From the NCBI GenBank assembly GCA_028718805.1, contig JAQUKY010000001.1, positions 80,384 to 144,383 on the forward strand: 64,000 bases of DNA, in the 5' to 3' direction. Of the stretch, positions 1,227 through 64,000 are shown piece by piece. The stretch comes from Candidatus Nanoarchaeia archaeon (GTDB lineage Archaea > Nanobdellota > Nanobdellia > Pacearchaeales > GW2011-AR1). Each line of letters begins with the position of its first letter. Position 1 is the first letter of the stretch. The notes under the pieces are model-generated. The model had not been told where the DNA came from, did not search any database, and worked only from the letters and a program-made list of their open reading frames with translations. The position numbers and the translations under genes are program-made.

Positions 1227-1301
1227 TGGCCCCAAGGGGATTTGAACCCCTGACACCTGCCTTAAGAGGGCAGTGCTCTAACCGGGCTGAGCTATGGAGC
1301 C
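1227..1301 (-). tRNA. tRNA-Lys (anticodon CUU), no encoded CCA
   Basis: The reverse complement folds as a cloverleaf: acceptor GGCTCCA/TGGGGCC, D stem GCTC/GAGC, anticodon stem CTGCC/GGCAG with loop CTCTTAA, T stem AGGGG/CCCCT with loop TTCAAAT, discriminator A. Confidence 0.9.
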
Positions 1302-15543: not shown

Positions 15544-16818
15544 ATGGTAAAAATCGGCATAATTGGGGGAAGCGGGTTGGATGACCCTAAATTATTGCAG
15601 GATTATTCTGAAAAAGAAATAGACACTAAATACGGAAAACCAAGTTCCAAGATAACCCATGGAAAACTTTCCGGAGCAGAGGTATATATTATTGCAAGAC
15701 ATGGGAAAACCCATAATATCCCCCCTGCTGCTGTAAATTACAGGGCTAATATTGCTGCATTGAAGTTATTAGGATGCGATTATATTATTACAACAAGTGC
15801 AGTAGGCTCATTAAAAGAAGACATTGAACCAGGAGATCTGGTTTTTCCTGATCAGTTTATTGATTTTACCAAGAAAAGGATAAATAGTTTTTATGAAGAA
15901 ATTGGAGAAGTAAATCATACCGGGATGGCAGAACCTTTTTCTGAGTTTTTGAGAGAAAGATTAATAGAAGCAACAGAAGAATTTGGTTTTAATTACCATA
16001 AAAAAGCAACAATTGTTGTGGTTGAGGGTCCGAGATTTTCTACAGAAGCAGAAAGCCATATGTTTAGGCAGTTTGGAGCAGATATTATTGGAATGACCAG
16101 TGTTCCTGAATGCACTTTGGCTAAAGAGGCAGGAATTCCTTATCAGACAATTGCTATGACTACCGATTATGATTGCTGGAGAGAAAACACTAAGTCTGTT
16201 ACATTTGAAATGGTTTTAACCAGAATGAAAGAAAATGCAGAAAAAGTAAAAAAGGTTTTGATGAGGGCAATTGAAAAAATAGCTGATTCAGACATAGATT
16301 TTATTAAAAGCAAGATAAGGACAGTCCCTGATTTTCCTAAGCCTGGAATAATGTTTAGGGATATTACAACTTTAGTAAGAGATCCAGAAGGATTTAGTAG
16401 AACAATGAAAGTTTTTGAAAATAGGTATAAAAATAAGGAAATTGATTTAATTGCGGGTATTGAATCAAGAGGATTTGTATTTGCTTCTGCTCTGGCAGCA
16501 AAATTAAATAAAGGAGTTGTTCTTTTAAGAAAACCTGGAAAGCTGCCATATAAAACAGTAGCACAGGAATATGACACAGAATACAGCAGAGACAGGATTG
16601 AAGTGCATGAAGATGCGATTGCAAAAGGGATGAATGTTTTGTTAATTGATGATTTGATTGCCACTGGTGGAAGTGCCTGGGCTGCCTGCAACTTAATTGA
16701 GAAGCTTGGGGGGAAGATTGTTGAATGCAGTTTTGTTGTTGAATTACCTGAATTAAAAGGCAGAGATAAACTGAAAAAATGGAATGTTTATTCTATTGTA
16801 AATTTTGAGGGAGGTTAA
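15544..16818 (+). CDS. Fusion: 5'-methylthioadenosine/purine nucleoside phosphorylase (N) plus adenine phosphoribosyltransferase (C)
   Basis: N half: IGIIGGSGL, ARHGKTHNIPP, VVEGPRFST, GMTSVPE. C half: PDFPKPGIMFRDIT and PRPP loop VLLIDDLIATGGS. Confidence 0.9.
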   Translation: MVKIGIIGGSGLDDPKLLQDYSEKEIDTKYGKPSSKITHGKLSGAEVYIIARHGKTHNIPPAAVNYRANIAALKLLGCDYIITTSAVGSLKEDIEPGDLVFPDQFIDFTKKRINSFYEEIGEVNHTGMAEPFSEFLRERLIEATEEFGFNYHKKATIVVVEGPRFSTEAESHMFRQFGADIIGMTSVPECTLAKEAGIPYQTIAMTTDYDCWRENTKSVTFEMVLTRMKENAEKVKKVLMRAIEKIADSDIDFIKSKIRTVPDFPKPGIMFRDITTLVRDPEGFSRTMKVFENRYKNKEIDLIAGIESRGFVFASALAAKLNKGVVLLRKPGKLPYKTVAQEYDTEYSRDRIEVHEDAIAKGMNVLLIDDLIATGGSAWAACNLIEKLGGKIVECSFVVELPELKGRDKLKKWNVYSIVNFEGG

Positions 16819-19219: not shown

Positions 19220-20239
19220 TTACCTTCTGAGATTGTACATTTTTCTTCCAAGGGCTTTAATTTTTTCAGAATTTTTTAGCTCATTTACCCATTTATCTGG
19301 GAATATCATGCCGTTCTTTGCCCCGGCTAATGCTCCATACATTGCTCCTGTTGTGTCGCAATCTCCCCCAAAATTTACTGTTTCAATTAAACCTTCTATT
19401 GGTTTATCCCAGTATTTTTGGAACATGAAGATTGTGAAAGGATAAGCTTCAAAAACCAGGGAAGAGCATCCAAGAATCGCATATGCTTTTATATCTGGAG
19501 CATCTTGATTTTCTTTGACCCATTTCAATTTTGAGGAAAGATTGCCTCTTTCAGGTAAAGCGTCATACTCCTGCTGCCTTTCATTTTTTGTGCAGGTATT
19601 TACTATTGAATCTAAAAATTCTTGCTTTGCTGGCTCGTTTAATAATTGAGATATAGCATGGGCTTGCACAACTCCAGATGCAATTGACCTTTCATCTAAA
19701 TGAGTTGCTCTTGAAATTAATCTTGACATCTTAATTCCTTCTTCGTATTTCCCTGTTGCATGCATATATAATCCTACAGGCGCCATTTTCATGCAGGGGC
19801 CAGTTCCAGGGCCAGGAGAAATTCCCAATTTTATTTTTTCAAATGCCTCTCTTGTTGATTTCCCAAATCCCCCTCTGATCTTTCCATCTGGTTTCCTGAG
19901 AGAATCATAAACTTCCACTTGTTTTTTACAGATATCTGTTAAATCTAATATTTTTTTATCTGCAATTGACTCTGCTATTGCTAAAGTTAGTATAGTGTCA
20001 TCAGTATAATCCCCTTTTGATAGGTCTCTTCCCCAATATTTTAGCCTGCCAAATTCATCTTCTTTTAGTAAATTTCCATTTTTATCTTTGACAAGAACGG
20101 GGTCAATAAGGTCTGTTATTCTTCCAACATATTTCTTAATTTGTCCCTTTTTCCATGCTTCTATAGGCATTCCAAGAGCATCTCCGATACCACAGCCGAT
20201 TAAAGTTGCGATATATTTTTCTTCAATATTTGTTTTCAT
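19220..20239 (-). CDS. ADP-ribosylglycohydrolase (ARH/DraG family)
   Basis: GCGIGDALGMPIE, GDYTDDT and GGDCDTTGAMYGALAGA (binuclear-metal ligand contexts). Confidence 0.85.
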   Translation of the reverse strand: MKTNIEEKYIATLIGCGIGDALGMPIEAWKKGQIKKYVGRITDLIDPVLVKDKNGNLLKEDEFGRLKYWGRDLSKGDYTDDTILTLAIAESIADKKILDLTDICKKQVEVYDSLRKPDGKIRGGFGKSTREAFEKIKLGISPGPGTGPCMKMAPVGLYMHATGKYEEGIKMSRLISRATHLDERSIASGVVQAHAISQLLNEPAKQEFLDSIVNTCTKNERQQEYDALPERGNLSSKLKWVKENQDAPDIKAYAILGCSSLVFEAYPFTIFMFQKYWDKPIEGLIETVNFGGDCDTTGAMYGALAGAKNGMIFPDKWVNELKNSEKIKALGRKMYNLRR

Positions 20240-22764
20240 TTTCGTTGTTTTACAATCTCTGGCTTACTGCCTTTTTTTACTATCGTTAATCCTAAAAACT
20301 TTTTATCTTCTTCTGGGAAATCTTCTCTGAAATGACAGGCTCTGCTTTCCTCTCTTTTTAATGCACTTTCTAAAATTATACTTGCAACGTCTGCGATATT
20401 TCTAACTTCTAAAAAATCTTTTGCTAAGAAATAATCCCAATAAAACACATCGATTCCTTTTTGAAGTGCATTTAATTTTTGTATTGCAATCTCTAGTCTT
20501 TTCTTGTCTCTTGAAATTCCGCAAAGGTCAGTCATTACTCTTCTTATTGATTCCCAGTATTCTTCTATTAACTCCTGATGTTTTATCTTGGTTGCTTTTC
20601 CAACGTCCCATAATGGTATTTCTATATCTTTATTATCATGCTTCTTTGATAAAAAATGTTTTGCAGCAAGTCTCCCAAATAATATGCATTCTGGACCAGA
20701 ATTGCTTGCAAGACGTGTTGCCCCATGTAGTCCAGTGTATGATGTTTCCCCGAGTACATAACAGTTTTTTATGCTGGTTTCTGAATTTGAATCAACTAAC
20801 ACTCCTCCGTTTGAGTAATGAACTGCATAAACAATTGGGATAGGATCTTTTTTCATATCAAATCCCTTTTTAAGGCAGAAATCATAGGAATTCTTAAAAT
20901 CTTTTGTGAGCCTGCTTTCAGGGATTTTAGTGCAGTCTAACCATAAATGAGTTAAATTATTTTTTTTCATTTCCAGGTCTTCTGCCCGGCTTACAACATC
21001 ACGTGTTGCCTTTGAGCCAAGAGGATGGTACTTTAAAATGCAATCTTCTTTAGAATCTTTATAAGTCTTGATTATTGCTCCTGCTCCGCGCAGAGCTTCT
21101 GTTAATAAGAATCTTCTTTCGTTTTCATGTCTTGCCTTTAGGTCATAGAAAACACTTGGGTGAAATTGTATAAATTCCATATTTGCCAGAGGCAACCCTG
21201 CTCTGTAACACATTGCAAACCCGTCTCCTGTGGCAATATCTTTGTTGCTTGTGTATGAGAAAACTTTTCCAAGTCCTCCTGTGGCAACAAATGTTGCTTT
21301 GCAAGAAACAGTCTTGACATAATTCTTTTTTATATCATAGACATAAAATCCCAGGCATATATTTTTACCTTTTCTTCTTAATTTTTTGCTGGTTATTAAA
21401 TCAATAACAATGTGGTCTTCATGCAAAGTTATGTTTGGGTGAGTTCTTACTTTTTCACTGAGAATTTTCATTATAGTAATTCCTGTTGTGTCTTTTGCAT
21501 GAAATACTCTATTTCTGCTGTGCCCTCCTTCTATATGCAGATCATAAACATATCCTTTTTTTGATTTATCAAAATCAACTCCCTTTTGAACTAACCATTC
21601 TATAACATCTGGAAAAAAATGCTTTGAACAATATTCTACAATTTTCTTGTCATTTAGATATTTTCCTGCCATGAGCGTGTCTTTTACATGTTTTTCAAAT
21701 GAGTCTCCTTTTAACGGCTTGTTGTTAATTATTGGAACTGCAGTTAATCCCCCTGCTGCCAGATAACTATTGCAGTCTTTGAATAAGCTTTTCTTTACAA
21801 ATAAGTCTACTTTTTTACCTGCATCAGCTAATTCTAGTGCTACTGTGCATCCTGCAAATCCTCCCCCAATTACTCCACATTCAGTTCTTATCATATTTCT
21901 GTCCATGCCTAGGTCAACTGATCTTGCAGAGTGGGTTATTTCGCCTATTGAGATTCTTTCAACTCCTGTTTTAGCAATACTTCTAACATTCTCAAGGTTT
22001 ATGCCTCCTGATGCCTCTAGCAATGGCTTTTTATTTTTATTATTCTCATTTCTCATTAAAACTGCTTTTTTTAACTGTTGAGGGCTCATGTTATCCAAAA
22101 GGATTATATCTATCCCAGGAATTTTTAAAATATTTTTAAATTGATTTAAATTATCTACTTCTATTTCTATAAATTTTATTTTTTTCATTTTTTTTGCCTT
22201 GGTTACTATTTTATTTAATTGGTCGTATGTGTTTTTTCTAAGTTGTGCTAGATGATTGTCCTTGATAAGAACTGCATCATAAAGCCCTATTCTGTGATTG
22301 TTTCCCCCTCCACATTTAACAGCATATTTTTCCAATTGTCTCCAACCCGGAGTTGTTTTTCTTGTGTCGTATATTTTTGCGCTAGTCTCTTTTACTGCAT
22401 CTACATATTTACTAGTTAATGTTGCAATTCCGCTTAGTTTTTGCATAAAATTAAGAAGAACCCTTTCAGAATTTAGAATAGAATTTAAACGTCCTTCTAT
22501 TGTTGCTATCTTTTCTCCTTTATCAACTCTTTCTCCATCTTCTGCATATATCTTGACTTTTAGGCTTGGGTCATATTCTCTTAAAATTTCTGCAATGAGA
22601 TTTGTTCCGCATACGATTATTTCCTCCCGGGAAACAATGTTTGCACTTATAACTTCGTTATTTTCATGGAAGAGACTTGTTGTTACATCTCCGTTTCCGA
22701 AATCTTCTTTAACTGCCATCTTGATTAAATGAGGCAATCCCTTGAATTTTGTTTTGTTTTTCAT
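20236..22764 (-). CDS. nadC-nadB: Fusion: quinolinate phosphoribosyltransferase (NadC, N) plus L-aspartate oxidase (NadB, C)
   Basis: N about 290 aa: DTRKTTPGWRQLEKYAVKCGGGNNHRIGLYDAVLIKDNH. C about 550 aa: FAD fold GVIGGGFAGCTVALELA, FIQFHPS, GLHGATRLASNS. Confidence 0.9.
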   Translation of the reverse strand: MKNKTKFKGLPHLIKMAVKEDFGNGDVTTSLFHENNEVISANIVSREEIIVCGTNLIAEILREYDPSLKVKIYAEDGERVDKGEKIATIEGRLNSILNSERVLLNFMQKLSGIATLTSKYVDAVKETSAKIYDTRKTTPGWRQLEKYAVKCGGGNNHRIGLYDAVLIKDNHLAQLRKNTYDQLNKIVTKAKKMKKIKFIEIEVDNLNQFKNILKIPGIDIILLDNMSPQQLKKAVLMRNENNKNKKPLLEASGGINLENVRSIAKTGVERISIGEITHSARSVDLGMDRNMIRTECGVIGGGFAGCTVALELADAGKKVDLFVKKSLFKDCNSYLAAGGLTAVPIINNKPLKGDSFEKHVKDTLMAGKYLNDKKIVEYCSKHFFPDVIEWLVQKGVDFDKSKKGYVYDLHIEGGHSRNRVFHAKDTTGITIMKILSEKVRTHPNITLHEDHIVIDLITSKKLRRKGKNICLGFYVYDIKKNYVKTVSCKATFVATGGLGKVFSYTSNKDIATGDGFAMCYRAGLPLANMEFIQFHPSVFYDLKARHENERRFLLTEALRGAGAIIKTYKDSKEDCILKYHPLGSKATRDVVSRAEDLEMKKNNLTHLWLDCTKIPESRLTKDFKNSYDFCLKKGFDMKKDPIPIVYAVHYSNGGVLVDSNSETSIKNCYVLGETSYTGLHGATRLASNSGPECILFGRLAAKHFLSKKHDNKDIEIPLWDVGKATKIKHQELIEEYWESIRRVMTDLCGISRDKKRLEIAIQKLNALQKGIDVFYWDYFLAKDFLEVRNIADVASIILESALKREESRACHFREDFPEEDKKFLGLTIVKKGSKPEIVKQRK

Positions 22765-32130: not shown

Positions 32131-33324
32131 TTATTTTATACCTCCTAATCTTAGTTTTAGTTTTGGATTTGGATTGTATTGTCTTCCGACTTTTGCAATC
32201 GGAACAAAATGTTCTGGATCTTCTCCAACAGCAACTATGTCCATTTTTGATGCCCTTGATTCGAAAATCTGGCCTACACCAAGACCTTCAAATAGTTTTG
32301 TTCCTAACAATTTCTCTGCTCTTACAAATGCCTCGACCTTTTTTGGTTCTGCAAAACCACTTGATAACCAGATTTGCAAATTTTTGTAATTATTTTCATC
32401 AAGAGCTTTTCTCATGGCATAAGTCCCTGTTACAGTCACTCCTCTGTCAAACCAGTATTTCTCATCTTCTTTAGGAATGATTACTTTTTTTCCAACTAAT
32501 CTCTCAAGTTTCTTTTCATCTTTAAATTCTAAAGCTCCTTCTCCGGCATTTTCACCACATGTATCTATTCTTGGGCCATGAAGCCTGTTTTTCAGAGCTT
32601 TGGCTGTATCTAAAGTGTCTGTAATTTCTTTATTTCTGTAATCACATAAAATTATTCTTGGAACTTCTGGTTCAATGTGTTTATCAAAAGCAATCATTGT
32701 TTCTGAAACAGCTCTTTCGTAGCCATATTTTGCAGCCATTATATTTTCTAGAACGTGAGGAGTTGTTCCCATTCCTTTTTTCCCTGCTGTTGCTGCACCA
32801 ATATCTGTTGAAGCGCTTGTTGCACCTGCTTCAAAAGCTGCTTTTGTAATTGCTGCATCTTCATCATATCTCCAGTGCCTTGCACCAAAATAAGAAATAA
32901 ACCTTCCTTCTGCAGCTTTCACAACGTACCTCATATTTTTTCTTACTAAGTCTAAATCTATTCCGTGCTTATCGTTCGCTTTTGTAGTTTCTGCTGCTAA
33001 AACTCCTAGATACATTGTTTCTAAATCCACAATGTCTTGGATTGGAGCCTCAATAAGCATAAGTGTTTCTTTCGGCTGATAAGATTCTCCTTCATTTAGT
33101 GCATAAACTCTTCCTTTATGAGCAACTAAATTGCTGTATTTATCAAGAATTGCAAGAGCTTCATTTATTCCATAAACTTTTCCAGGCCCTTTTCTTATAA
33201 ATATCTGTGCTCTTACCCAAGGATTGATACCTTCTGCTTCAAGTATTTTCTTTGCTCTTAGAAAATATTTGTCAATATAAGAAGCATATTCATCAGGCAG
33301 ATTAAATTTTTTTGTTTGTGCCAT
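32131..33324 (-). CDS. pncB: Nicotinate phosphoribosyltransferase (archaeal/type II PRTase-like)
   Basis: GTTPHVL, ILCDYR, PRIDTCGE, IWLSSGF and LGVGQIF align in order with conserved blocks of archaeal NAPRTases as I recall them. Confidence 0.75.
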   Translation of the reverse strand: MAQTKKFNLPDEYASYIDKYFLRAKKILEAEGINPWVRAQIFIRKGPGKVYGINEALAILDKYSNLVAHKGRVYALNEGESYQPKETLMLIEAPIQDIVDLETMYLGVLAAETTKANDKHGIDLDLVRKNMRYVVKAAEGRFISYFGARHWRYDEDAAITKAAFEAGATSASTDIGAATAGKKGMGTTPHVLENIMAAKYGYERAVSETMIAFDKHIEPEVPRIILCDYRNKEITDTLDTAKALKNRLHGPRIDTCGENAGEGALEFKDEKKLERLVGKKVIIPKEDEKYWFDRGVTVTGTYAMRKALDENNYKNLQIWLSSGFAEPKKVEAFVRAEKLLGTKLFEGLGVGQIFESRASKMDIVAVGEDPEHFVPIAKVGRQYNPNPKLKLRLGGIK

Positions 33325-46769: not shown

Positions 46770-48173
46770 CTATGTTACATCTCCTAAAACTAAAGCAGAA
46801 TTATATCCCCCAAAACCCATAGAGATTACAAGGGAATTTCTTATATTCCTTTCTACTGCTTTATTGGGGGTGTAGTTTAAATCACATTCAGGGTCTGGAT
46901 TGTCTAAATTAATTGTTGGGGGAACAAGATTATTTTGTACTGCAAGAGCACTTATTATCGCTTCTATTCCTCCTACTGCTCCTATTGAATGTCCTGTCAT
47001 TGATTTTGTTGAGCTTATATTTAACTTGTTAGTATGTTCTTCAAACACCTCTTTAATAACTTTAGTTTCAACAAGATCACAGGTTTTGGTTGCAGTTCCG
47101 TGGGTATTGATATAATCAATTTCATTTATGTTTAAACCAGACATATTGATTGTTTTTTTTATCGCTTTTTTTAAGTACTCTCCTTCTGGATGAAGCATAA
47201 CCATTTGTGGGTTTGCATCACTGGATTGACTATACCCTTTTATTTTAGCATAAATTTTAGCATTTCTTTTTAATGCACATTCTTTTTCTTCTAAAACAAT
47301 TATCCCTGCTCCTTCTGAAATAGCAAATCCATCTCTGTCAATGCAGTATGGTTTGGGTTTTGTTCTCGAGATTACTCCTAAATTAGATAGGCAGGATATT
47401 GCCTGCAGAGTAATTGGTGCTTCAGAACCTCCTGCAATTGCAGTATTAGAACGACCTTCCTTAATTGTGTAATAGGCTTGTCCTATTGCGTCAAGTCCTG
47501 AAGAACAAGCGGTATTTATACATATCGAAGACCCATGAAAGTTAAAAAAACTAGAAATTTTTGCAGGAATTGCATAACTTTTAAAATCTATGGTATTTGG
47601 TGGAGTAAATTGGTAAAGATTTCCAAATCTTTTATTAAGAAAGGTTATAAATTCTTCGAGCTTGTCTTCTTGCAATAGGCATTTGTACTTTACAAATTCT
47701 CTTTTTGTTTTAAAAAAATGAAATGGTCTAACCAATTTATTAAATTCTTCAAAGGTTTTTTTCATAACTGTCTGGATAACTACTTTTACAACCTGCTCAT
47801 TTGATTGAATCGGTTCTTCTGCATTTCCCATAAAAACGTCAATATCATTGTTTTCTTTGTTATATTCCAAAACTGCATTTTCTAATGCTAATCTTGTTCC
47901 AAGAACAGCAAATTGTATGGATTTGTCATCTGTTTTGACTTTCCCATAATTTTTTTTATTAAATTTCCCTTGATTTACATCTTGTAAAAAATAATTATCT
48001 AGATTAAAATCTTTGATTTCACTTCCCTTAATTTCCCCATAACCTCTATCTCTTACTATTGGAAGAGTCTCAAAAAAAGATTTTCCATTAACTATGTTCT
48101 CCCAAAAATCTCTTATTCCAATTCCATTGGGTGTTACTATTCCTAGCCCTGTTATTACAACTTCTCGGTTCAT
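46770..48173 (-). CDS. Beta-ketoacyl synthase, FabF/KAS-II type (Cys-His-His)
   Basis: VVITGLGIVTPNG, active-site NTACSSGLDAIG, THGTATKTCD, GHSIGAVGG, GFGGYNSALVL. About 60 extra residues precede the active-site Cys. Confidence 0.85.
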   Translation of the reverse strand: MNREVVITGLGIVTPNGIGIRDFWENIVNGKSFFETLPIVRDRGYGEIKGSEIKDFNLDNYFLQDVNQGKFNKKNYGKVKTDDKSIQFAVLGTRLALENAVLEYNKENNDIDVFMGNAEEPIQSNEQVVKVVIQTVMKKTFEEFNKLVRPFHFFKTKREFVKYKCLLQEDKLEEFITFLNKRFGNLYQFTPPNTIDFKSYAIPAKISSFFNFHGSSICINTACSSGLDAIGQAYYTIKEGRSNTAIAGGSEAPITLQAISCLSNLGVISRTKPKPYCIDRDGFAISEGAGIIVLEEKECALKRNAKIYAKIKGYSQSSDANPQMVMLHPEGEYLKKAIKKTINMSGLNINEIDYINTHGTATKTCDLVETKVIKEVFEEHTNKLNISSTKSMTGHSIGAVGGIEAIISALAVQNNLVPPTINLDNPDPECDLNYTPNKAVERNIRNSLVISMGFGGYNSALVLGDVT

Positions 48174-49408
48174 TTTTTAAACATGCTCCCCCTTTCCAAA
48201 TCTTCAAGGGAATTTATGGCTTTTTTAAGACAATTTTCTCTTGCTTTATCTCCTCCGACAAATTTTAGATGTTTTTCAGCAATATCTTTGCAATAACTGC
48301 ATGAATTTGCATTTTTTTTCTCATTTTTCAACTCTGAGATATCACAAATGTGCTCGCTGCAATCTTTACCTTTGATAAAAGGTTCTATAAATCCATCTAG
48401 ATCTTTGTTGTTTAAATAAACTTGTGCTGGAAAAATTGCTTCTTGCATATTTCTCATTTTTTGTGCCCTTGCTTTTCCTAAAATAGCTCCTTTAATAAAA
48501 GGGGTTCTATTTACTTGTGTGAATTCATTGTTTCTGTAATTTAGAATATCAAAAAGATTTCCATCATAAGATTTTTCTGCATAAGCTTTAACAACTCTTA
48601 CTAGCCAATCAGTAGGTCTTGAACGTTCTGTTAATTTTAAAGTTAAATTTGTCTTTCCAATTTTATCGCATAGCTCTTCATAATAATGAACATCTTCTGG
48701 TCTTATCCAGTCTGCTGCAATAAATTTTCCAGAGCTTTCAAATTTTTCTTTTCCGCAGTTCAAAGAATAAAAATCCAAGAAAAATCCTCCTGATTCATGA
48801 TTTGATTGAGAAGAGTGAGCAAGAGCATTTGCATGATTTGTTCTGTAAATACAATCGTGCAAACAAGTGTTATTGGCAATCAATCTTAAATTTAAATCAG
48901 TTGATTTTAATGCCTGTTCTAACTTTTTAAAATTTCTGTTAAATCCGTAATGTAATGTTAATTCGTCTGCTCCTAATTCTTCCCAGGCCCTTATTCTTTC
49001 CAGACTGTCTATATCGTTATATACTGAAACAGAGATTTCTAAATCTGGCGCAGTATTTTTTGCAAGTTTTAGCATGAATGGGCTTCCGACAGTTACAATG
49101 TCTGCTCCTGTGTCTTGGATATGTTTTATAAAATCCCTTATTTGTAAATTTGTTTTTCCAGAGAATTCTCTGTTATCTGAGCATAAAGCATTAAAAAGAT
49201 AATTAAACTTAATTCCATGTTCATGTGCAGTTTTAATATGCCCCTTTAGTTGTTTCTGTGAGATATTGGGTATTGTAAAGCTTGGTCTTCCTCCGCCAAT
49301 GATATGTTCGCTCAGCATGCCATACAAACACTTGACAATTCCAAAAGGCGCAACTTTTTCTATTAATTTATTATCAAAATTTGTAGCTAAATCATACCTC
49401 ATTTCCAT
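48170..49408 (-). CDS. Peptidase-U32-family-like TIM-barrel / Fe-S protein
   Basis: The block order HEHGIKFNYLFNA, DTGADIVTVGSPFML, ISVSVYNDIDS and ELGADELTL matches U32 proteins. NNTCLHDCIYRTNH sits at the signature position, with further C-terminal Cys residues (CSEHIC, CSYC). Confidence 0.55.
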   Translation of the reverse strand: MEMRYDLATNFDNKLIEKVAPFGIVKCLYGMLSEHIIGGGRPSFTIPNISQKQLKGHIKTAHEHGIKFNYLFNALCSDNREFSGKTNLQIRDFIKHIQDTGADIVTVGSPFMLKLAKNTAPDLEISVSVYNDIDSLERIRAWEELGADELTLHYGFNRNFKKLEQALKSTDLNLRLIANNTCLHDCIYRTNHANALAHSSQSNHESGGFFLDFYSLNCGKEKFESSGKFIAADWIRPEDVHYYEELCDKIGKTNLTLKLTERSRPTDWLVRVVKAYAEKSYDGNLFDILNYRNNEFTQVNRTPFIKGAILGKARAQKMRNMQEAIFPAQVYLNNKDLDGFIEPFIKGKDCSEHICDISELKNEKKNANSCSYCKDIAEKHLKFVGGDKARENCLKKAINSLEDLERGSMFKK

Positions 49409-56943: not shown

Positions 56944-58167
56944 TTAAGCAAACCTATTCAGATTATTGCTCATAATCATGTCATGTTTTCTTTCTTTTAA
57001 CCATTCAGTTTCTTTTTCATCTAAATCAAGGCGTTTATTTGCTTCCCGGTCTATAATCAACGGGAAAAGAAAAGCTTCTTTATTTGCTTTTCTCTTGGAA
57101 ATATGGCATCTTTGAGAATATTTTGCTATTATGGATTTCTTTTTTGCATTTTTTTGATTAGAAAGCCAGATTTTTAATATTCTTGAAGGTTTTCTGTATT
57201 TTGTGAACTTTTTGTATTTTAGTTTTGTTGCTGTAGAAATTCCTGCAGATAAAAAAAAGTTTTGGTATAACAAAAATCTCCAGTATTGCTGCCTGTAGAT
57301 TCTTCCTCTGAACACATCTGCCTTGCTTAAACTATCATAAGCTTTTGCCAAGGCTTCTCCTTTATATTCTGAAGGAATATTTTCTTCAACCCATAATAAT
57401 ATTTCATCTAATTCCAGTTTAGTATTGTCATAAACTCTTATTGTTTTTTCTTCTGTTTTGTTTTGGAAAACATTTTTTAATGCATTAAATATGCTTTCTT
57501 CTTTTTCTCTTTCGCTTAGTTCTTCTAAGAATGCCTGTTCCCCTAGACTTATAGCTGTCTGAAGGTCATTTAATGCAGCTCTTACATCTCCCTTTGCCAG
57601 TACTGAAATCATGATTATTGTTTCCGGCCTTAGAGATTTATTTTCTTTTTTTAAAATATCCTTTATTATATTAAGAATTACCTTGTCAGTTAATTCATTT
57701 ACACTTACTAAATGGCATCTTTTTCTTAATAAATTAAATTTCCTGTCCCAGATATCATTTGCAGTTATAATTATAGGATGAGAAGTTTTGTCAATTAAAG
57801 CTATAAGTTCCGGCAACCCCCCCCTGTCTGTTCCGGTTATCCCGTCTGCTTCATCCATTAAAATTAATTTTCCTTTTCTGAATAAAGAATGCTGTTCTAT
57901 AGAAGGCCTTAATACTTCCTCTAATTTTAATCTGTTTCTTAAATCGCTTGCATTTAGTTCAAATAATTCCAAGTTAAACTCATTTGCAAGAGCAATTACC
58001 AAGCTTGTTTTTCCTGTTCCAACAGGGCCGTTTAATATCAGAGCTTTTTTCATTGGAAATCTCTTATAAAAGTTTATAACTTCCTGGATGGCAATGTCCT
58101 GCCCCCTTATATCTGAGAACTTCTTTACTCTGTATTTTTCAATTAAAGGCAAGGTTTTAGGCAGCAT
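56944..58167 (-). CDS. rfcL: Replication factor C, large subunit
   Basis: Walker A LNGPVGTGKTS, Walker B LILMDEADG, and a basic C-terminal region. Confidence 0.9.
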   Translation of the reverse strand: MLPKTLPLIEKYRVKKFSDIRGQDIAIQEVINFYKRFPMKKALILNGPVGTGKTSLVIALANEFNLELFELNASDLRNRLKLEEVLRPSIEQHSLFRKGKLILMDEADGITGTDRGGLPELIALIDKTSHPIIITANDIWDRKFNLLRKRCHLVSVNELTDKVILNIIKDILKKENKSLRPETIIMISVLAKGDVRAALNDLQTAISLGEQAFLEELSEREKEESIFNALKNVFQNKTEEKTIRVYDNTKLELDEILLWVEENIPSEYKGEALAKAYDSLSKADVFRGRIYRQQYWRFLLYQNFFLSAGISTATKLKYKKFTKYRKPSRILKIWLSNQKNAKKKSIIAKYSQRCHISKRKANKEAFLFPLIIDREANKRLDLDEKETEWLKERKHDMIMSNNLNRFA

Positions 58168-58168
58168 T

Positions 58169-58510
58169 TTAAATTATTTTATTTATTCCTTCGAAGTGAA
58201 TTGTTTTATCATCTATATCATAGACTTCATTTACTTTATAAATCCCTTTTGTATACATCTTTCCATTTTTTAAAAGATGGATTGCTCTTTGTATGGTTAT
58301 ACTAGCTAATGGGCGGGATAGTTCCCCGTTTCCTTTTGTTTCTACTAAAGGAATTTCGCCAAAAAACCAGTAATTTCTTTGCCCTTCTTTTAGGAAATCA
58401 TAAAATTTTCCTGCTTCAATATTCTTTGGCAAACATTCATCTTCTAATCTTCCTTTTGTTCCAAATTTTCTTAATGCTAAATCTGGATTAAATTCTATTT
58501 GAATTCCCAT
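58169..58510 (-). CDS. Hypothetical protein (113 aa) inside the rfc operon
   Basis: One nt from the rfcL start; no motif recognised. Confidence 0.45.
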   Translation of the reverse strand: MGIQIEFNPDLALRKFGTKGRLEDECLPKNIEAGKFYDFLKEGQRNYWFFGEIPLVETKGNGELSRPLASITIQRAIHLLKNGKMYTKGIYKVNEVYDIDDKTIHFEGINKII

Positions 58511-58516
58511 TTTAAA

Positions 58517-58744
58517 TTATATACTCACTCCATATATTTTCTTCATTAAATGTCCTACTCTTCTTCGTTGTAATGGCAAATCCATTTCTATTATATTGTA
58601 GTATCCTTCAACCTGGACGTTTAAATGAACATATTTATTTTTAATGTAGTCTATAGCTCTTTGTAAGATGGGATGTTCACATTCACTATAAGCATTTTTT
58701 TCAGAATTCCATAGTTGTCCTAATAATTTTAATAAGTTTTTCAT
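58517..58744 (-). CDS. Hypothetical protein (75 aa) inside the rfc operon
   Basis: ORF only. Confidence 0.4.
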   Translation of the reverse strand: MKNLLKLLGQLWNSEKNAYSECEHPILQRAIDYIKNKYVHLNVQVEGYYNIIEMDLPLQRRRVGHLMKKIYGVSI

Positions 58745-58752
58745 ATTTTAGT

Positions 58753-59145
58753 TTACTCCTCTTTCTTTATGAATAATTTATTACTTCCGTTATAGCGTAT
58801 ACCATGCGGCCATCCTTTTTGGAAGTGTTCAAAACCTTTTTCTGATAGGTTTATGTACCAACTTGAATTTTCTGATTCTGGAATTAATATTTTTCCAAGA
58901 CCTTCCATGTCACTTGCGTTTTTAAAAAACCCTCCTGGATCTTTGCCATAACCAAGAAAAAAATATGTTCTTAGTTCCATGCATGTTCCTCTTAATAATA
59001 TGTATCCTTTTCCGTCTTTGTCCAGATTTTTTGAACTATTATGAATATCTGCAAAATGCTTTGTAGGACCTTTTTCTAATGCATTTGATTCTTCTGCTGT
59101 CAGAAATAAAGTTATATCCTGGTCGTTATCATATTTAACTTGCAT
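58753..59145 (-). CDS. Hypothetical protein (130 aa) inside the rfc operon
   Basis: One nt after the rfcS stop; no motif recognised. Confidence 0.45.
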   Translation of the reverse strand: MQVKYDNDQDITLFLTAEESNALEKGPTKHFADIHNSSKNLDKDGKGYILLRGTCMELRTYFFLGYGKDPGGFFKNASDMEGLGKILIPESENSSWYINLSEKGFEHFQKGWPHGIRYNGSNKLFIKKEE

Positions 59146-59146
59146 T

Positions 59147-60154
59147 TTATTTTACAATTCCTTTTCCAGCAAGCACAAAGCTTGCTAAAAGGGCCTCTAA
59201 TTGGATAAACTCATCGCTTCCCTCAACTAATCTGAATTCAATTTCCCCTGTTTTCTCTGTCAACTTTACTTTTAACTCATCATCAATCTGCAGGTTCCAG
59301 ACTTCTTTCTGTATTGATTTTATTATGTCTGTTCCTGAAACAGATTCTTTTAGCATTACATCCAATAATTTTTCTTTTGCTCTTTCAAAGTCCCCTGAAA
59401 GGGCATATTCCAGGACAATTTTTATGTCTGCTGGCTTTGCGCTTGAGATTAAAGTGCTCACAAGTTCAGAGGTTATTGCAGGAGAAATAGAAGCTGAAGC
59501 CTGAAGAAGATTTATTACCCTTCTGCAATCTCCTTCACTTCCCTCATATAGAGTTTCTATTGTCTTATCACTTATTTGCAGATTTTCGCTTTCTGCTATT
59601 TTTTTGATAATCCTCTCTATATCTTTCCTTTCTAAGAGCTTGAATCTGAAAATTGCTGTTCTTGACTGAATTGGGTCTATTATTTTTGAGGAATAGTTGC
59701 AGGAAAGAATAAACCTGCAGGTTCCTGTGAAATTTTCCATTGTTCTTCTTAATGCCTGCTGGGCTTCCCTTGTTAATGCGTCTGCTTCATCCAAGAAAAT
59801 AACTTTAAATGGAACATCTCCTAACGCTTTTGTCCTTGCAAAATCTTTTACTTTTTGCCTTACAACATCAATTCCTCTTTCATCACTTGCGTTCAATTCC
59901 AGGTAATTCTCTTTCCAAGTTGGACCAAATAACTCTTTTACTACAATTAAAGCCAATGTAGATTTTCCTGTTCCTGCAGGTCCTGCAAACATCATGTGGG
60001 GGATGTTTAATGATTTAGTCAGATTTTGTACTTTTTTTATAATGTCATCCTGCCCAACAACACCTTCAAATTTTTTTGGTCTGTATTTCTCTGTCCAGAT
60101 TGTCAATTCATTAGCTTTTTTTAATTGCCTCTCTTTTAGTTCTTTAAGTTCCAT
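59147..60154 (-). CDS. rfcS: Replication factor C, small subunit
   Basis: Walker A FAGPAGTGKST, Walker B IFLDEADAL, and SRC-position motif PIQSRTAIFRF. Confidence 0.95.
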   Translation of the reverse strand: MELKELKERQLKKANELTIWTEKYRPKKFEGVVGQDDIIKKVQNLTKSLNIPHMMFAGPAGTGKSTLALIVVKELFGPTWKENYLELNASDERGIDVVRQKVKDFARTKALGDVPFKVIFLDEADALTREAQQALRRTMENFTGTCRFILSCNYSSKIIDPIQSRTAIFRFKLLERKDIERIIKKIAESENLQISDKTIETLYEGSEGDCRRVINLLQASASISPAITSELVSTLISSAKPADIKIVLEYALSGDFERAKEKLLDVMLKESVSGTDIIKSIQKEVWNLQIDDELKVKLTEKTGEIEFRLVEGSDEFIQLEALLASFVLAGKGIVK

Positions 60155-61004: not shown

Positions 61005-61121
61005 TTAACTTATTCTTGCTTTTCTTTGCTTTCTTTTTCTCTTTACTCTTCTAATTCTTTTTCTCTGCCATTTCCATCTCATTTGGCCTTTCTTTTTCCA
61101 TCTTCTACTTGAGCGTTTCAT
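61005..61121 (-). CDS. rpl41e: Ribosomal protein eL41 (L41e)
   Basis: Not in the ORF track. Translates to MKRSSRRWKKKGQMRWKWQRKRIRRVKRKRKQRKARIS, matching the archaeal eL41 pattern KRSSRRWKKKGxMRWKW as I recall it. Confidence 0.8.
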   Translation of the reverse strand: MKRSSRRWKKKGQMRWKWQRKRIRRVKRKRKQRKARIS

Positions 61122-61152
61122 GAAATAGAATGGAAAATAGTGTTTAAAAAGC

Positions 61153-62163
61153 TTATCTCTTGCTCTTTGATAGCCCTTCAAGGCTTTGTTGATATAATCT
61201 CTCTTTTTCCTGTTTTGTATTTGTAATATTATCTTCTATTTCTTTTAACTCTGCTTTTTTTGTGTTTATGTTAGAATCTATCTTATATATTTCCTCATTT
61301 TTTTCTTTTATAGTCTTTTCTAGACCCTCAAAATTTGCCCTTTGATAAGCTGCTTTTCTCGTTAAATCCCCTAATTCATAATTTTTTGTTTCTATATTTT
61401 TTTCTAGTACAGAAACCTCCCCTATCTTATTTTTATATGCTTCTGTTGCCCTATGTAAATTTTGTTCTGTTGTGTAAACTTCTGTTTGCAGATTTCCTAA
61501 GGTATTCTGCTTGTTTTTAATATCTTTTTCAAGAACAGGTATTTGCGTCTTTAGCGAATTGTAATGGCTAAAATTAAGATCATATTTCTTGAGGCTATTT
61601 TTGTAAGTGTTTCCTGCAAATGCAATTACTAATGCAAGTGCTATTGTTGCAAAGATTTTTGCAGGGCGATTTTTTTTCATTTTTTCTCCCCTGTCTTTTA
61701 TCTTCTGCAGCTCTTCTCTTTCTAAGTATAAGAGGTTTGGATTTGCTTTTTTTAATGCTTTCCTAAAACAGGTGTCTGTTTTTTCTGAGTCTGACCTTAT
61801 AAGAACAAGCCCATCTTTTGTTCTTTTATCGTCTGCTATATAAAGGGCTGCTCTGTCTATTATTTCCGCTAATGGCCTGCCGGAATTCAGCATGTTCTTT
61901 ATATCGTTTCTGCTATTTGCCTGGGTGATCATTTCAAGAAATCCATCTGCGATTATCACGCTCTTTATTCCTCTTTGTCCCTCTTCTATCAGCCTTTTTT
62001 TAGCTTCTTCATCAGATACCTGTTCTTTGAGAAGTGCGGTTAGGGCTTCATAAATAGGGTGTATTATTCCTTCTTCTGTTGAGAAATTAGAAGATTTTTT
62101 GGAATATAATCCTGCTATTTTTTCTGTTAAATTATTTTTCTCCATTTTTCTCACATCCAGCAA
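61153..62163 (-). CDS. Hypothetical bitopic protein: N-terminal globular domain, one TM, long coiled coil
   Basis: TM IFATIALALVIAFAG at about residue 170, followed by about 150 aa of heptad-rich sequence. Its start overlaps the E1-like gene's end. Confidence 0.5.
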   Translation of the reverse strand: MLDVRKMEKNNLTEKIAGLYSKKSSNFSTEEGIIHPIYEALTALLKEQVSDEEAKKRLIEEGQRGIKSVIIADGFLEMITQANSRNDIKNMLNSGRPLAEIIDRAALYIADDKRTKDGLVLIRSDSEKTDTCFRKALKKANPNLLYLEREELQKIKDRGEKMKKNRPAKIFATIALALVIAFAGNTYKNSLKKYDLNFSHYNSLKTQIPVLEKDIKNKQNTLGNLQTEVYTTEQNLHRATEAYKNKIGEVSVLEKNIETKNYELGDLTRKAAYQRANFEGLEKTIKEKNEEIYKIDSNINTKKAELKEIEDNITNTKQEKERLYQQSLEGLSKSKR

Positions 62164-63337
62164 GGCAGTTTCTTAATGTCAGAACTTTTTCAATCCCTCT
62201 GTTAGAATTGTATTTGATAGTAGCTGTGTCTTCATGCATTTTGTTTATCTGGTTTACTAGAAGAGCCCCGGTTATCTGGTTTGAGATTATTGTTGTAGGC
62301 TCATAACAACTGCCAACTTCTTCTTTATCTTTTGTCTGGCTTAGCATTCCAAAACCCTGGCAGTCAAGGCAGGCTGTTTTTCCTGGAATATAAGGCATTA
62401 CACTTCCTTGTATGAAAGATGTCCCAGAATTTAAGAGAGGGGTTTTTGTTTTATAGGAAAGCCAGTCCAGATAATATCTTGCTTTTGCGTTATCAACACA
62501 GCTTAAAATAATCTCATAATATTTTTCTAATTTGTAGTTCTCATCAACCTTCCTAACTATGCCTTTAAAATTTCCTAATTTTGATAACTTTTCTGCCATT
62601 ACTTCTGCTTTATATTTTCCAACTGAATTGTAAAAAAGAATCTGCCTGTTTAGATTAGATTCCTCAACGTTGTCAAAATCAATTACATCAACATCTGCCC
62701 CTGCCATTGCCAGCCCTATGCCTGCAAATGTGCCTATTGCACCTGCCCCAACCAATAAAACTTTCTTGTTTATTTTATCCTCTAAATTACTCGCTGAGAG
62801 CCTGGAAAGGGTTTTATCATCTGGGAGAGGCATTATTCTTTTTCTTATTTCATCTGCTGTTATCCCTGAGGCAATTATTGCATTTATAATCCCATTGTTT
62901 TTTTCATTTTTATGAAAATTGATAATCTCGTCTAAACTTTCATTTTTTTTAATAACTTTAATCTTATAGGATTCTTTAGAGCAGGATGCAGAGATAGCTT
63001 GAATGCTGTTTTTTATTGCATATCCAATACAAATTTGCTTTTCTCTGCCTTCAGAAGCGTCTACAAAAAAATCTGGTTTTCCTATATAATCCTTTGCAAG
63101 TTCTTCATTTAAAACTTCTCCTTGTATTTCTTCAAATTCAGTATCCGGGTTCATATTATAGAAATCTAAAAATTGCAGGCTGTTTTCTCCTATCCTTGTT
63201 ATTTTTCCGAAACCCATTGCTGTTAAGTCTGCAAGAATAAAAGAAGCAAGATTATTTGAGCCAGTTACAACTATGTGTGAATTTTGCAGATTTTCCTGCT
63301 TCCATCCTTTTGCCAGTTCCTGCTTTGCATATCTCAT
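62132..63337 (-). CDS. E1-like protein with tandem ThiF/MoeB-type domains (degenerate N, active-looking C)
   Basis: C half: VLLVGAGAIGTFAGIGLAMAGADVDVIDFDNVEESNLNRQ, SCVDNAKAR, CLDC...CLAGC. N half: RYAKQE...NSHIVVTGSNNLASFILADLTAMGFGKITRI, with ThiF-like layout but no Gly loop or NRQ. Confidence 0.8.
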   Translation of the reverse strand: MRYAKQELAKGWKQENLQNSHIVVTGSNNLASFILADLTAMGFGKITRIGENSLQFLDFYNMNPDTEFEEIQGEVLNEELAKDYIGKPDFFVDASEGREKQICIGYAIKNSIQAISASCSKESYKIKVIKKNESLDEIINFHKNEKNNGIINAIIASGITADEIRKRIMPLPDDKTLSRLSASNLEDKINKKVLLVGAGAIGTFAGIGLAMAGADVDVIDFDNVEESNLNRQILFYNSVGKYKAEVMAEKLSKLGNFKGIVRKVDENYKLEKYYEIILSCVDNAKARYYLDWLSYKTKTPLLNSGTSFIQGSVMPYIPGKTACLDCQGFGMLSQTKDKEEVGSCYEPTTIISNQITGALLVNQINKMHEDTATIKYNSNRGIEKVLTLRNCLAGCEKNGEK

Positions 63338-63343
63338 TTGAAA

Positions 63344-64000
63344 TCATCTGGAGAAAATCCCGAGCAAGCCAGGTTTTTTTACTTTTTGTCTTATCTCTTC
63401 TCTTATCCCTTCTTCTGAAAATTTAATATCATCTTCTGTTTCTATTATCTCCAGCTTGATTGGTTTTTTTGTTATGTGGCTTTTTTCGCAGACAGTGCAT
63501 ATCTCTTTTAATGCAACTTCTGCATAAAATTTTCCTTCGCTTGCCACAAGTGAGTATGCATACCCCAAGGATTTTAGTTTTTGGGGCTCAGTTTCTTTAA
63601 ATGTCAGTGTATGCTCTCCGAGAGGCATGAAAATTGTTTTCCCTCCTATGTTAAAATAGAATTTGTTGTCTTTAGTATGCATATAATTTATTTTTGGATT
63701 AATGATTTTTCTTTCTACAGTATACGTGTTAAAGGGCTTTGTTGATTTTATTTCAAGTTCAACTCCTCCTTCTCTAATGAGGAATCTGTTTCTTTCAAAT
63801 TCGTTTTTTACGGGATCGTTTCCTATTAGGATTATTTCCCTGTTTCCTGCTATTGAATGAACAAGTTTTTCTAAATTTCTGTCATCTGTTCCAGAATGCC
63901 AGGCGCCCATGCCATGATGGCTGTGCCAACAGCCTATTGCATCATATCCAAGATTTTCAATTTCTGCCTTGGATTTGAATGCACCTTCCGGGCCAATTGA
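63344..64000 (-). CDS. JAB/MPN+ (JAMM) metalloprotease with C-terminal extension; 5' end outside the window
   Basis: The frame stays open to position 64000. JAMM motif WHSHHGMGAWHSGTD (HxH-x7-S-xx-D), followed by about 185 aa of unassigned sequence. Confidence 0.8.
   Translation of the reverse strand, partial: SIGPEGAFKSKAEIENLGYDAIGCWHSHHGMGAWHSGTDDRNLEKLVHSIAGNREIILIGNDPVKNEFERNRFLIREGGVELEIKSTKPFNTYTVERKIINPKINYMHTKDNKFYFNIGGKTIFMPLGEHTLTFKETEPQKLKSLGYAYSLVASEGKFYAEVALKEICTVCEKSHITKKPIKLEIIETEDDIKFSEEGIREEIRQKVKKPGLLGIFSR

Follow-up and report, generated by a model that had tools for sequence, protein, structure and literature searches.

Introduction

Complete ubiquitin-type cascades are few outside the eukaryotes (the ubiquitin systems of Caldiarchaeum and Asgard archaea, SAMP, Bil, Bub and Cap2), and each of them has altered views on the origin of the eukaryotic system. 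The bacterial Bil system comprises a ubiquitin-like protein or 'Ubl' (BilA), an E2 (BilB), a JAB protease (BilC) and an E1 (BilD), the last of which joins an inactive adenylation domain (IAD) to an active one (AAD) (10.1101/2023.09.26.559546). In the Caldiarchaeum-type system the modifier is a bona fide ubiquitin, the E2 has a UBC fold and the E3 is a RING protein (PMC5654768, PMC3082918, and in part general background). The present report concerns a gene cassette that appears to belong to the same functional class, and that was encountered at the end of a stretch of 64,000 nucleotides (nt) of DNA from a Candidatus Nanoarchaeia archaeon, one of the DPANN archaea (GCA_028718805.1, contig JAQUKY010000001.1, positions 80,384-144,383 of the forward strand; this whole stretch is termed 'the window' below). 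There, a gene for a JAB/MPN+ metalloprotease is closely followed by a gene for an E1-like protein with two ThiF-type domains in a single chain.

The cassette is apparently a real, conserved and previously undescribed Ubl system, in which a minimal pseudo-dimeric E1 is combined with an orphan cysteine protein that replaces a recognisable E2. The literature searched (subscription-only papers being outside the search) contained no account of this particular set of genes, or of any Ubl cassette from DPANN archaea, and the cassette is not among the systems given in the 2006 survey of Iyer et al.

Organization of the cassette

In the window, the JAB open reading frame (ORF) lies on the minus strand, as do all of the cassette features described below. 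It runs off the window edge at position 64000 and reaches its stop at 63344, after which 6 nt (TTTCAA) lead to the ATG of the E1-like ORF of 401 amino acids (aa; 62132..63337). The original prediction for this locus had described precisely such a JAB/MPN+ ORF, cut by the edge and positioned 6 nt ahead of a 401-aa ORF, and both the coordinates and the Pfam assignments agree with that description; the motifs that it quoted (HSHHGMGAWHSGTD, MRYAKQE, VVTGS, GFGKI, GAGAIG, NLNRQ, CVDN, CLDC and CLAGC) are likewise all found. It had also claimed that the cassette is of the Ubl type, and that a modifier and an E2 might be encoded just past coordinate 64000.

A look-up of the exact protein recovered a public contig of 4.7 kb (L001) that shares 2909 nt with the window, at 0 mismatches, and reaches 1771 bases beyond position 64000. 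It carries five co-directional, close-packed genes, for a small protein (112 aa), a protein termed MID (331 aa), the JAB protein (287 aa), the E1-like protein (401 aa) and a membrane coiled-coil protein (330-336 aa), in that order. The first four are spaced 13, 2 and 6 nt apart, and the fifth overlaps the E1 gene (by 32 nt if it begins at a TTG, or by 14 nt from the called ATG). The Bil-like order of Ubl, 'E2', JAB and E1 is present in this contig, with a small protein ending in Gly and a cysteine protein in the slot of the E2; the UBC fold anticipated for the latter is not demonstrable. Chance ORFs were considered as an explanation and rejected.

Two ThiF-type domains in one E1-like chain

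The E1-like protein is matched by the Pfam ThiF family in two stretches (E=1.4e-41), and its two halves are recognisably related to one another. When profiles of the N half (residues 1-177) and the C half (178-401), derived from 55 full-length homologues, were compared using hhalign, they aligned across 148 columns with a probability of 98.9% (E=1.2e-17), which is far beyond chance. By itself, the N-half profile finds MoeB (4.5e-14) and ThiF (1.8e-12) in the PDB. This half (residues 1-176; 62810..63337) is evidently an inactive adenylation domain: it lacks the Gly loop, the NRQ motif and the catalytic Asp, and in the PDB profile alignment about 22 residues are missing exactly at the Asp...NLxRQ segment that binds the nucleotide. 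What it has kept is the RYxxQ element (R2 in 73 and Q6 in 75 of 79 members), which, in eukaryotic E1s as in the dimers of MoeB and ThiF, extends into the ATP-binding and active site of the partner.

The C half (residues 177-401; 62135..62809) carries an invariant active-site set. It includes the ATP-binding Gly loop GAGAIG (residues 197-202; 62732..62749) and the NLNRQ motif with its arginine finger R231 (residues 228-232; 62642..62656); G197, G199, G202, R231 and D282, the last of which corresponds to the Mg-binding Asp of the superfamily, are unchanged in 79/79 members, and N228 and Q232 are likewise invariant. Two Zn-type motifs, CLDC (C323 and C326; 62360..62371) and CLAGC (C391 and C395; 62153-62167), form a pair, although both CxxC-type pairs are retained in slightly less than half of the 79 full-length members (C323 and C326 are cysteines in 37 and 36 of them and C395 in 36, the rest having other residues or gaps). 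A candidate catalytic (thioester) cysteine, Cys344 (62306..62308), is situated in a short crossover loop and is present in 39/39 members of one alignment and in 78/79 full-length members. Because the segment from C326 to N353, which contains this cysteine, measures only 22-39 residues in every full-length member, no CYS domain can be inserted there; and because the chain ends at residue 401, directly past the second Zn motif, it has no E2-docking domain resembling the C-terminal ubiquitin-fold domain (UFD).

These results bear out the view that an inactive ThiF-type N half and a complete C half are combined in a single chain, and the two halves would be expected to pack as an intramolecular pseudo-dimer. 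The original prediction had gone further and called this the eukaryotic-E1 design. The inactive-then-active arrangement in one chain is indeed found here, but it is not confined to eukaryotes: the BilD protein of bacteria shares it, and a 'eukaryote-only' framing of the IAD-AAD architecture is for that reason outdated (10.1101/2023.09.26.559546). Moreover, the N half matches the inactive domains of eukaryotic E1s in the PDB (SAE1 7.6e-4, NAE1 0.03) more weakly than it matches MoeB. This closer resemblance to MoeB and ThiF suggests that the inactive/active design arose here by a duplication of its own, rather than by orthology with the eukaryotic IADs.

The profile of the whole family, compared with the PDB, has its best matches in the AAD of Uba1 (1e-31, 113 bits), SAE2 (4e-30, 108 bits) and MccB (4e-29, 105 bits), followed by ThiF (102 bits) and MoeB (97 bits); PaaA also scores, and Cap2 and BubCD reach 54 and 47 bits. 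Among NCBIfam models, the C half is best matched by those for ThiF and MoeB, all far under their cut-offs. Some 60 full-length homologues exist in the protein database, and wherever the source organism is named it belongs to the Nanoarchaeia, Pacearchaeota or Woesearchaeota. Pfam assigns ThiF, and in a few cases other Rossmann-type families in addition, to these homologues, and a rhodanese domain to none of them. The names given to cassette proteins in the database are simply 'ThiF family adenylyltransferase' and 'hypothetical protein'.

The JAB metalloprotease and the candidate modifier

The part of the JAB gene that lies in the window (63344..64000) encodes residues 70-287 of 287 and the stop; the gene starts beyond the window, at L001:1565. 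The JAMM active-site motif H-S-H-x7-S-x2-D can be read directly from the sequence (HSHHGMGAWHSGTD; 63884..63925), and the match to the Pfam family Prok-JAB improves from E=2.8e-7 for the fragment to E=1.8e-10 for the full protein. All elements of the zinc site E...HxHx7Sx2D (E37, H95, H97, S105 and D108) are kept in 64-66 of 66 family members. The protein carries approximately 150 additional C-terminal residues, among which is a CxxC.

The 112-aa protein encoded by the first gene of L001 ends in ...NGFQKVG, and this C-terminal Gly is the sole invariant residue in 27 diverse homologues from related loci. Most of those homologues end in ...VQ(E/Q)GG followed by 0-10 unconserved residues, and candidates for the same role across the loci are proteins of 110-180 aa that are predicted to be folded and have GG ends. 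An invariant C-terminal Gly with variable tails behind it is the signature of a modifier with a protease-trimmed tail. No family in Pfam (including ThiS and MoaD), PADLOC, NCBIfam or PHROG matches the protein. Its AlphaFold model (pLDDT 66, pTM 0.61) has the topology b-b-a-a-b-b-3_10-b, and a Foldseek search with this moderate-confidence model returned top matches that are nearly all beta-grasp proteins (DIX, Ras-binding, ubiquitin, NEDD8, ISG15 and SUMO), with probabilities of up to 0.94, TM scores of 0.4-0.57 and weak E values. The expectation of a beta-grasp ORF ending in GG past coordinate 64000 is therefore matched in part: a small protein with a beta-grasp-like model of moderate confidence exists, and it ends in VG in the window's own clade and in GG, followed by variable tails, in most other relatives.

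An orphan cysteine protein in the E2 position

MID, which occupies the position that an E2 would hold in a Bil operon, has a C-terminal domain with one invariant cysteine (C299), found in 70/70 and 45/45 members of two alignments of a family whose mean column identity is 19%. Its relatives amount to only 86 cluster representatives among 1.84 billion proteins. In 59-63 of 70 members, an HPF-x(8-12)-IC motif leads into the cysteine; it is missing from the window's own clade. The AlphaFold model of MID (pLDDT 70) shows the C-terminal domain as a beta-meander, a loop that holds the cysteine, and a helix.

Attempts to assign this domain to a described family gave no significant match. PADLOC, NCBIfam and PHROGs have nothing to offer for MID. 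An hhalign comparison of its C-terminal domain with three human E2s aligned only the 12-residue HP..IC stretch, to HPN...C, at a probability of 1% that is not significant, and the comparison with BilB (sequence from 10.1101/2023.09.26.559546) gave 0.3%. A UBC-fold identity is consequently not recognisable, as Pfam, the PDB profile search, Foldseek and hhalign all failed to return a significant match. A link between MID and JAB clusters that was seen by BLAST was also dismissed, its source being a single truncated ORF. The role suggested for MID below draws instead upon its position, its invariant cysteine and the resemblance of its motif to that of E2 enzymes.

As a separate observation, the E1 gene of two Nanoarchaeota is flanked by three to four tandem paralogues of about 280 aa, which correspond to MID in its central helical part alone and lack the cysteine domain (L020:5267-10147; L023:8361-10765).

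Distribution and genomic context

A scan with one genome per species yielded 96 relatives, and the 80 best of these supplied the loci considered here. Roughly half of the loci come from DPANN archaea (some being metagenome-assembled genomes that bear other labels); Desulfobacterota account for many of the others, and Chloroflexi and candidate phyla for a few. Iterative searches of the locus ORFs with hidden Markov models showed that, in most loci, the small GG protein is encoded together with MID, JAB and E1, and that MID is linked to E1 as tightly as JAB is. The usual order in DPANN archaea is small protein-MID-JAB-E1, and that in bacteria is small protein-MID-c3-AAA+-JAB-E1, or a circular permutation of it that begins with E1. 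One carrier of the cassette, Desulfoferrobacter suflitae DRH4 (L046), is in culture, which together with the small size of the components renders the biochemistry of the system directly testable.

The genes that adjoin the cassette in the window encode the small and large subunits of RFC, and PolB and Cdc48 are encoded elsewhere in the same 64 kb; in another locus (L006) the neighbours include ribosomal proteins, FtsZ, Spt5 and SecE. Such core-gene neighbourhoods, in organisms with minimal genomes, argue for an important cellular role. No full-length relatives were found in the viral contigs of IMG/VR, and PHROGs gave no matches; a viral or mobile origin was rejected on these grounds.

Two further observations belong to the same surroundings. 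Three small orphan ORFs (58169-59145) lie between the genes for the RFC small and large subunits (56944-60154, minus strand). The Cdc48 protein (5010-7457, plus strand) is a double AAA+ ATPase of the Cdc48/VCP type and has a CDC48 N-domain; its gene is unlinked to the cassette, and it might act in this genome as a reader of Ubl tags.

Accessory genes

The fifth gene of the cassette (61153..62163, 330-336 aa), which overlaps the stop of the E1 gene, encodes a protein with a soluble N-terminal domain, a long coiled coil and, at residues 168-186, one predicted transmembrane helix. Homologues of it after E1 are restricted to the window's own clade (L003, L007, L008, L009 and L010) plus L026, and the genes that follow E1 do not form a common family: the coiled-coil protein is related neither to the bacterial 'c3' nor to the fifth genes of other DPANN archaea. 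Its 3' end is overlapped by an ORF of 58 aa (61005-61181, minus strand) that is extremely basic (KRKRKQRKARIS tail) and that may be spurious or encode a small nucleic-acid-binding protein.

The other accessory genes differ between lineages. In 32 loci (28 bacterial and 4 DPANN) the cassette includes a ClpX/HslU-like AAA+ protein. In 7 DPANN loci, an AAA+ ATPase of the classical type is encoded a short way upstream of the small protein, usually directly so; it matches the OB domain of proteasomal ATPases faintly, below the Pfam cut-off. Examples of AAA+ ATPases in or beside the cassette are found at L078:4942-6051, L035:3015-4160 and L020:2372-3853. The frequency of this linkage, to both ClpX-like and classical AAA+ proteins, suggests a 'tag-and-unfold' pathway.

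Ser/Thr protein kinases are encoded just downstream of E1 in 6 DPANN loci, and a transglutaminase-like protein (a weak, sub-threshold match) in 2 loci; such genes are located at L035:8432-9298, L004:8530-10227 and L029:8302-9267. Directly upstream of the E1 gene, the locus of L049 (6692-6961) and 14 other loci from Desulfobacterota encode a coiled-coil protein of 89-93 aa with the conserved end F[GA]PPHG. These loci therefore have two small proteins whose C-terminal Gly is conserved, and this additional one might serve as a substrate or as a further tag.

Proposed mechanism and alternative explanations

Gene content and order, the identities of the domains, the conservation of their motifs and the phyletic spread are all matters of observation, and they can be accommodated in a scheme in which the steps of adenylation, thioester formation, conjugation and unfolding would be arranged as follows. 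The 112-aa beta-grasp-like protein would be the modifier, Gly-terminal in this organism and carrying GG plus 1-10 residues in its relatives, where JAB would trim the tail residues from modifier precursors. The 401-aa E1 would fold as an intramolecular pseudo-dimer, with the N half, which has no ATP site of its own, acting as a structural partner whose RYxxQ element contributes to the ATP site of the C half. The C half would bind ATP-Mg and adenylate the C-terminal Gly of the modifier, and C344 would then take the modifier as a thioester; from there it would move to C299 of MID, in the part of an E2, and thence, via this second thioester, to lysines of the targets. JAB might also strip the modifier from targets. 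The membrane coiled-coil protein may be a clade-specific adaptor or target that directs or receives the tag, and in other lineages AAA+ unfoldases occupy the accessory place, which suggests that tagged proteins may be unfolded, extracted or degraded.

It is considered highly probable that the genes form a cassette for Ubl activation, in which a JAB protease accompanies a tandem E1. The full reading, of a ubiquitin-like protein-conjugation system with modifier, JAB, pseudo-dimeric E1 and MID as cysteine carrier, is given a probability of about 0.6.

A number of results weigh against this full reading. The structural assignment of the modifier depends upon a model of only moderate confidence (pLDDT 66) and upon Foldseek matches with E values of 0.02-0.1, and its sequence has no similarity to known Ubl proteins (in Pfam, in PDB profile searches, or in hhalign comparisons with ubiquitin, NEDD8 and SUMO1 and with BilA); in the window's own clade it furthermore ends in VG instead of GG. 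MID in that same clade has lost the HP motif, its C-terminal domain has no match in Pfam or in the PDB profile search, and Foldseek finds no E2 for it (the best PDB match has E=1, the UEV domain of TSG101 E=2.9, and the best match in BFVD E=0.1). Neither an E3 nor a target has been recognised. Finally, the combination of JAB, E1 and a tailed small protein also occurs in sulfur-carrier pathways, for example CysO/Mec+ and QbsCDE.

Four other explanations can be set beside the scheme, two of which agree with it that proteins are tagged. If tagging were independent of an E2, as in SAMPylation, the E1 alone would both activate and conjugate the modifier, and MID would not be a thioester carrier but an adaptor for substrates or a factor like an E3, another isopeptidase that depends on a cysteine, or the main target itself. 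SAMP/UbaA systems need no E2 (PMC4443979, PMC4895103), the E1 described here shares with MoeB and UbaA a short crossover-loop cysteine and lacks a UFD-like E2-docking domain, and none of the tests that were run assigns MID to the UBC fold. However, a lone cysteine that is absolutely invariant throughout so divergent a family looks like a catalytic nucleophile; it sits in an HPF...IC context that resembles the active site of an E2, and the linkage of MID to E1 equals that of JAB, all of which leaves this explanation unlikely. The same chemistry might alternatively serve antiviral defence, as in Bil or type II CBASS, rather than a housekeeping role. The gene order does equal that of bilA-B-C-D (10.1101/2023.09.26.559546), and the PADLOC Cap2 'E1-E2' models match the adenylation domain at 1e-15 (BilD does so weakly, at 4e-6), but these matches span only the generic nucleotide-binding part. 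The core-gene surroundings of the loci in the window and in L006, the presence of the cassette in many species of DPANN archaea and Desulfobacterota, and the results from IMG/VR and PHROGs all speak against defence, as does the fact that no CapH/CapP-like regulators were recognised (in analyses that included no search aimed at them). A defensive role is accordingly regarded as improbable.

The remaining two explanations dispense with protein conjugation. In one, the E1 would thiocarboxylate the C-terminal Gly of a sulfur carrier, from which sulfur would pass to a cofactor, a tRNA or a metabolite, and JAB would merely trim, as Mec+ does on CysO. JAB-trimmed sulfur carriers do exist, MoeB and ThiF are the nearest matches of the N-half profile, and the best NCBIfam matches of the C half, albeit far under their cut-offs, are of the same kind. 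Yet none of the approximately 60 full-length homologues contains a rhodanese domain, and the conserved neighbours include no MoaE, ThiG, CysM or NcsA-type gene; the original prediction had pointed to a context of sulfur-transfer enzymes as the finding that would speak against it, and no MoaE/ThiG-type or rhodanese partner occurs among the cassette genes and the neighbours scanned, just as the N half, for which a ThiF fold had been foreseen, does match MoeB and ThiF. The partners that are conserved are an invariant-Cys protein and AAA+ unfoldases, and tandem inactive/active E1s are, to our knowledge, confined to protein-conjugating systems (10.1101/2023.09.26.559546); sulfur transfer thus has little probability. 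The other explanation, a system for ribosomally synthesised and post-translationally modified peptides in which an MccB/PaaA-like enzyme modifies the C-terminus of a precursor, takes its appeal from the high rank of MccB, and the score of PaaA, among the PDB matches of the family profile. It is very improbable, given that the substrate candidates are folded proteins by prediction, of 110-180 aa and with GG ends, rather than short peptides, that a ThiF domain, and not a peptide clamp, makes up the N half, and that exporter or immunity genes were not recognised among the conserved neighbours.

Beyond the conjugation scheme itself, a considerably broader proposal can be put forward, tentatively and with more doubt than confidence. 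It holds that Ubl tagging of this kind is a housekeeping process common to the genome-reduced DPANN archaea and the Desulfobacterota, with an origin separate from that of the eukaryotic, Bil, Bub and SAMP systems; that its E1, with a crossover-loop cysteine and without CYS or UFD domains, would be the smallest known single-chain pseudo-dimeric E1; and that MID, as a non-UBC cysteine carrier, would represent a new class of conjugating enzyme, the whole feeding AAA+ unfoldases in a logic like that of ubiquitin and the proteasome.

Other features of the window

Several features at some distance from the cassette may be recorded. An 842-aa protein (20236-22764, minus strand) is a fusion of NadC (quinolinate phosphoribosyltransferase) to an L-aspartate-oxidase-like flavoprotein (FAD_binding_2 plus Succ_DH_flav_C), and a second QRPTase_N protein is encoded at 32131-33324. 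A nucleoside phosphorylase (PNP_UDP_1) is fused to a phosphoribosyltransferase domain (15544-16818, plus strand), and a beta-ketoacyl synthase is encoded beside a U32-peptidase-like protein (46770-49408, minus strand), which is unusual for DPANN archaea. The sole RNA gene detected in the 64 kb is that for tRNA-Lys(CTT) (1227-1301, minus strand).

Comparison with known systems

Of the described systems, Bil resembles the cassette in having the four roles (small protein, 'E2', JAB and E1) in matching order, and in that JAB is expected to expose the C-terminal Gly of the modifier (10.1101/2023.09.26.559546). The proteins themselves are nevertheless distinct. The cassette E1 lacks the helical CYS domain of about 80 residues, its cysteine being contained in the crossover segment of 22-39 residues. 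Its hhalign alignment to the BilD of E. aridi extends over 62 columns that comprise only the generic nucleotide loop (probability 73%), and the PADLOC BilD model covers 80 of its residues (4.2e-6, 23.7 bits). The 331-aa MID is unrelated to BilB, both in the hhalign comparison and in PADLOC, which gives no match, and the modifier shows no sequence relationship to BilA. The cassette differs also in its hosts, which are DPANN archaea and Desulfobacterota, and in its housekeeping genomic context.

With the eukaryotic E1s (Uba1; SAE1/UBA2; NAE1/UBA3) the cassette protein shares the combination of inactive and active adenylation domains, and hence the logic of a pseudo-dimer, as well as an RYxRQ element retained in the inactive half; the AAD of Uba1 and SAE2 are also the best matches of its family profile in the PDB. 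In contrast to those enzymes, it has neither the FCCH/SCCH catalytic-cysteine domains nor a C-terminal UFD, and its inactive half is closer to MoeB and ThiF than to SAE1 or NAE1.

The SAMP/UbaA/HvJAMM1 system is similar in its archaeal host, its short crossover-loop cysteine, its Zn-type CxxC pairs and its JAMM partner (PMC4443979). However, UbaA, MoeB and ThiF have one adenylation domain each and act as homodimers, whereas the cassette E1 fuses two; that E1 scores 49.8 bits on the NCBIfam model for the SAMP-activating E1 UbaA (NF047750), for which the cut-off is 450; the modifier has no match to ThiS or MoaD in Pfam; and the cassette adds the invariant-Cys protein MID. Caldiarchaeum-type operons likewise combine, in archaea, a modifier, an E1, a protein in the E2 position and a JAB protease (PMC5654768, PMC3082918), and are set apart by their description: in the present cassette the modifier and MID have no detectable relatives in sequence, and no RING protein is seen. 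The Bub (6E) and CBASS Cap2/Cap3 systems exhibit the same general logic of a prokaryotic E1, a JAB protein and a conjugated protein (10.1101/2024.11.21.623953). BubCD and Cap2 are homodimeric fusion proteins, though, and score far lower against the cassette E1 than Uba1 does; Bub moreover forms oxyesters without a catalytic cysteine, unlike the cassette E1 with its invariant one.

Membership of the E1 in the BilD, Cap2, BubCD or UbaA families was accordingly rejected, on the basis of profile scores and alignment lengths. Since the E1 scores differ, and since MID and the modifier have no recognisable relatives, the cassette is best kept apart from the Bil, Bub, CBASS, SAMP and Caldiarchaeum-type systems and filed under none of them: it seems to work as they do, and to constitute a separate lineage. 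To the small number of ubiquitin-type cascades outside the eukaryotes it would add one whose inactive/active E1 seemingly stems from a duplication of its own, and in which the E2 position is taken by a protein from outside the recognisable families.

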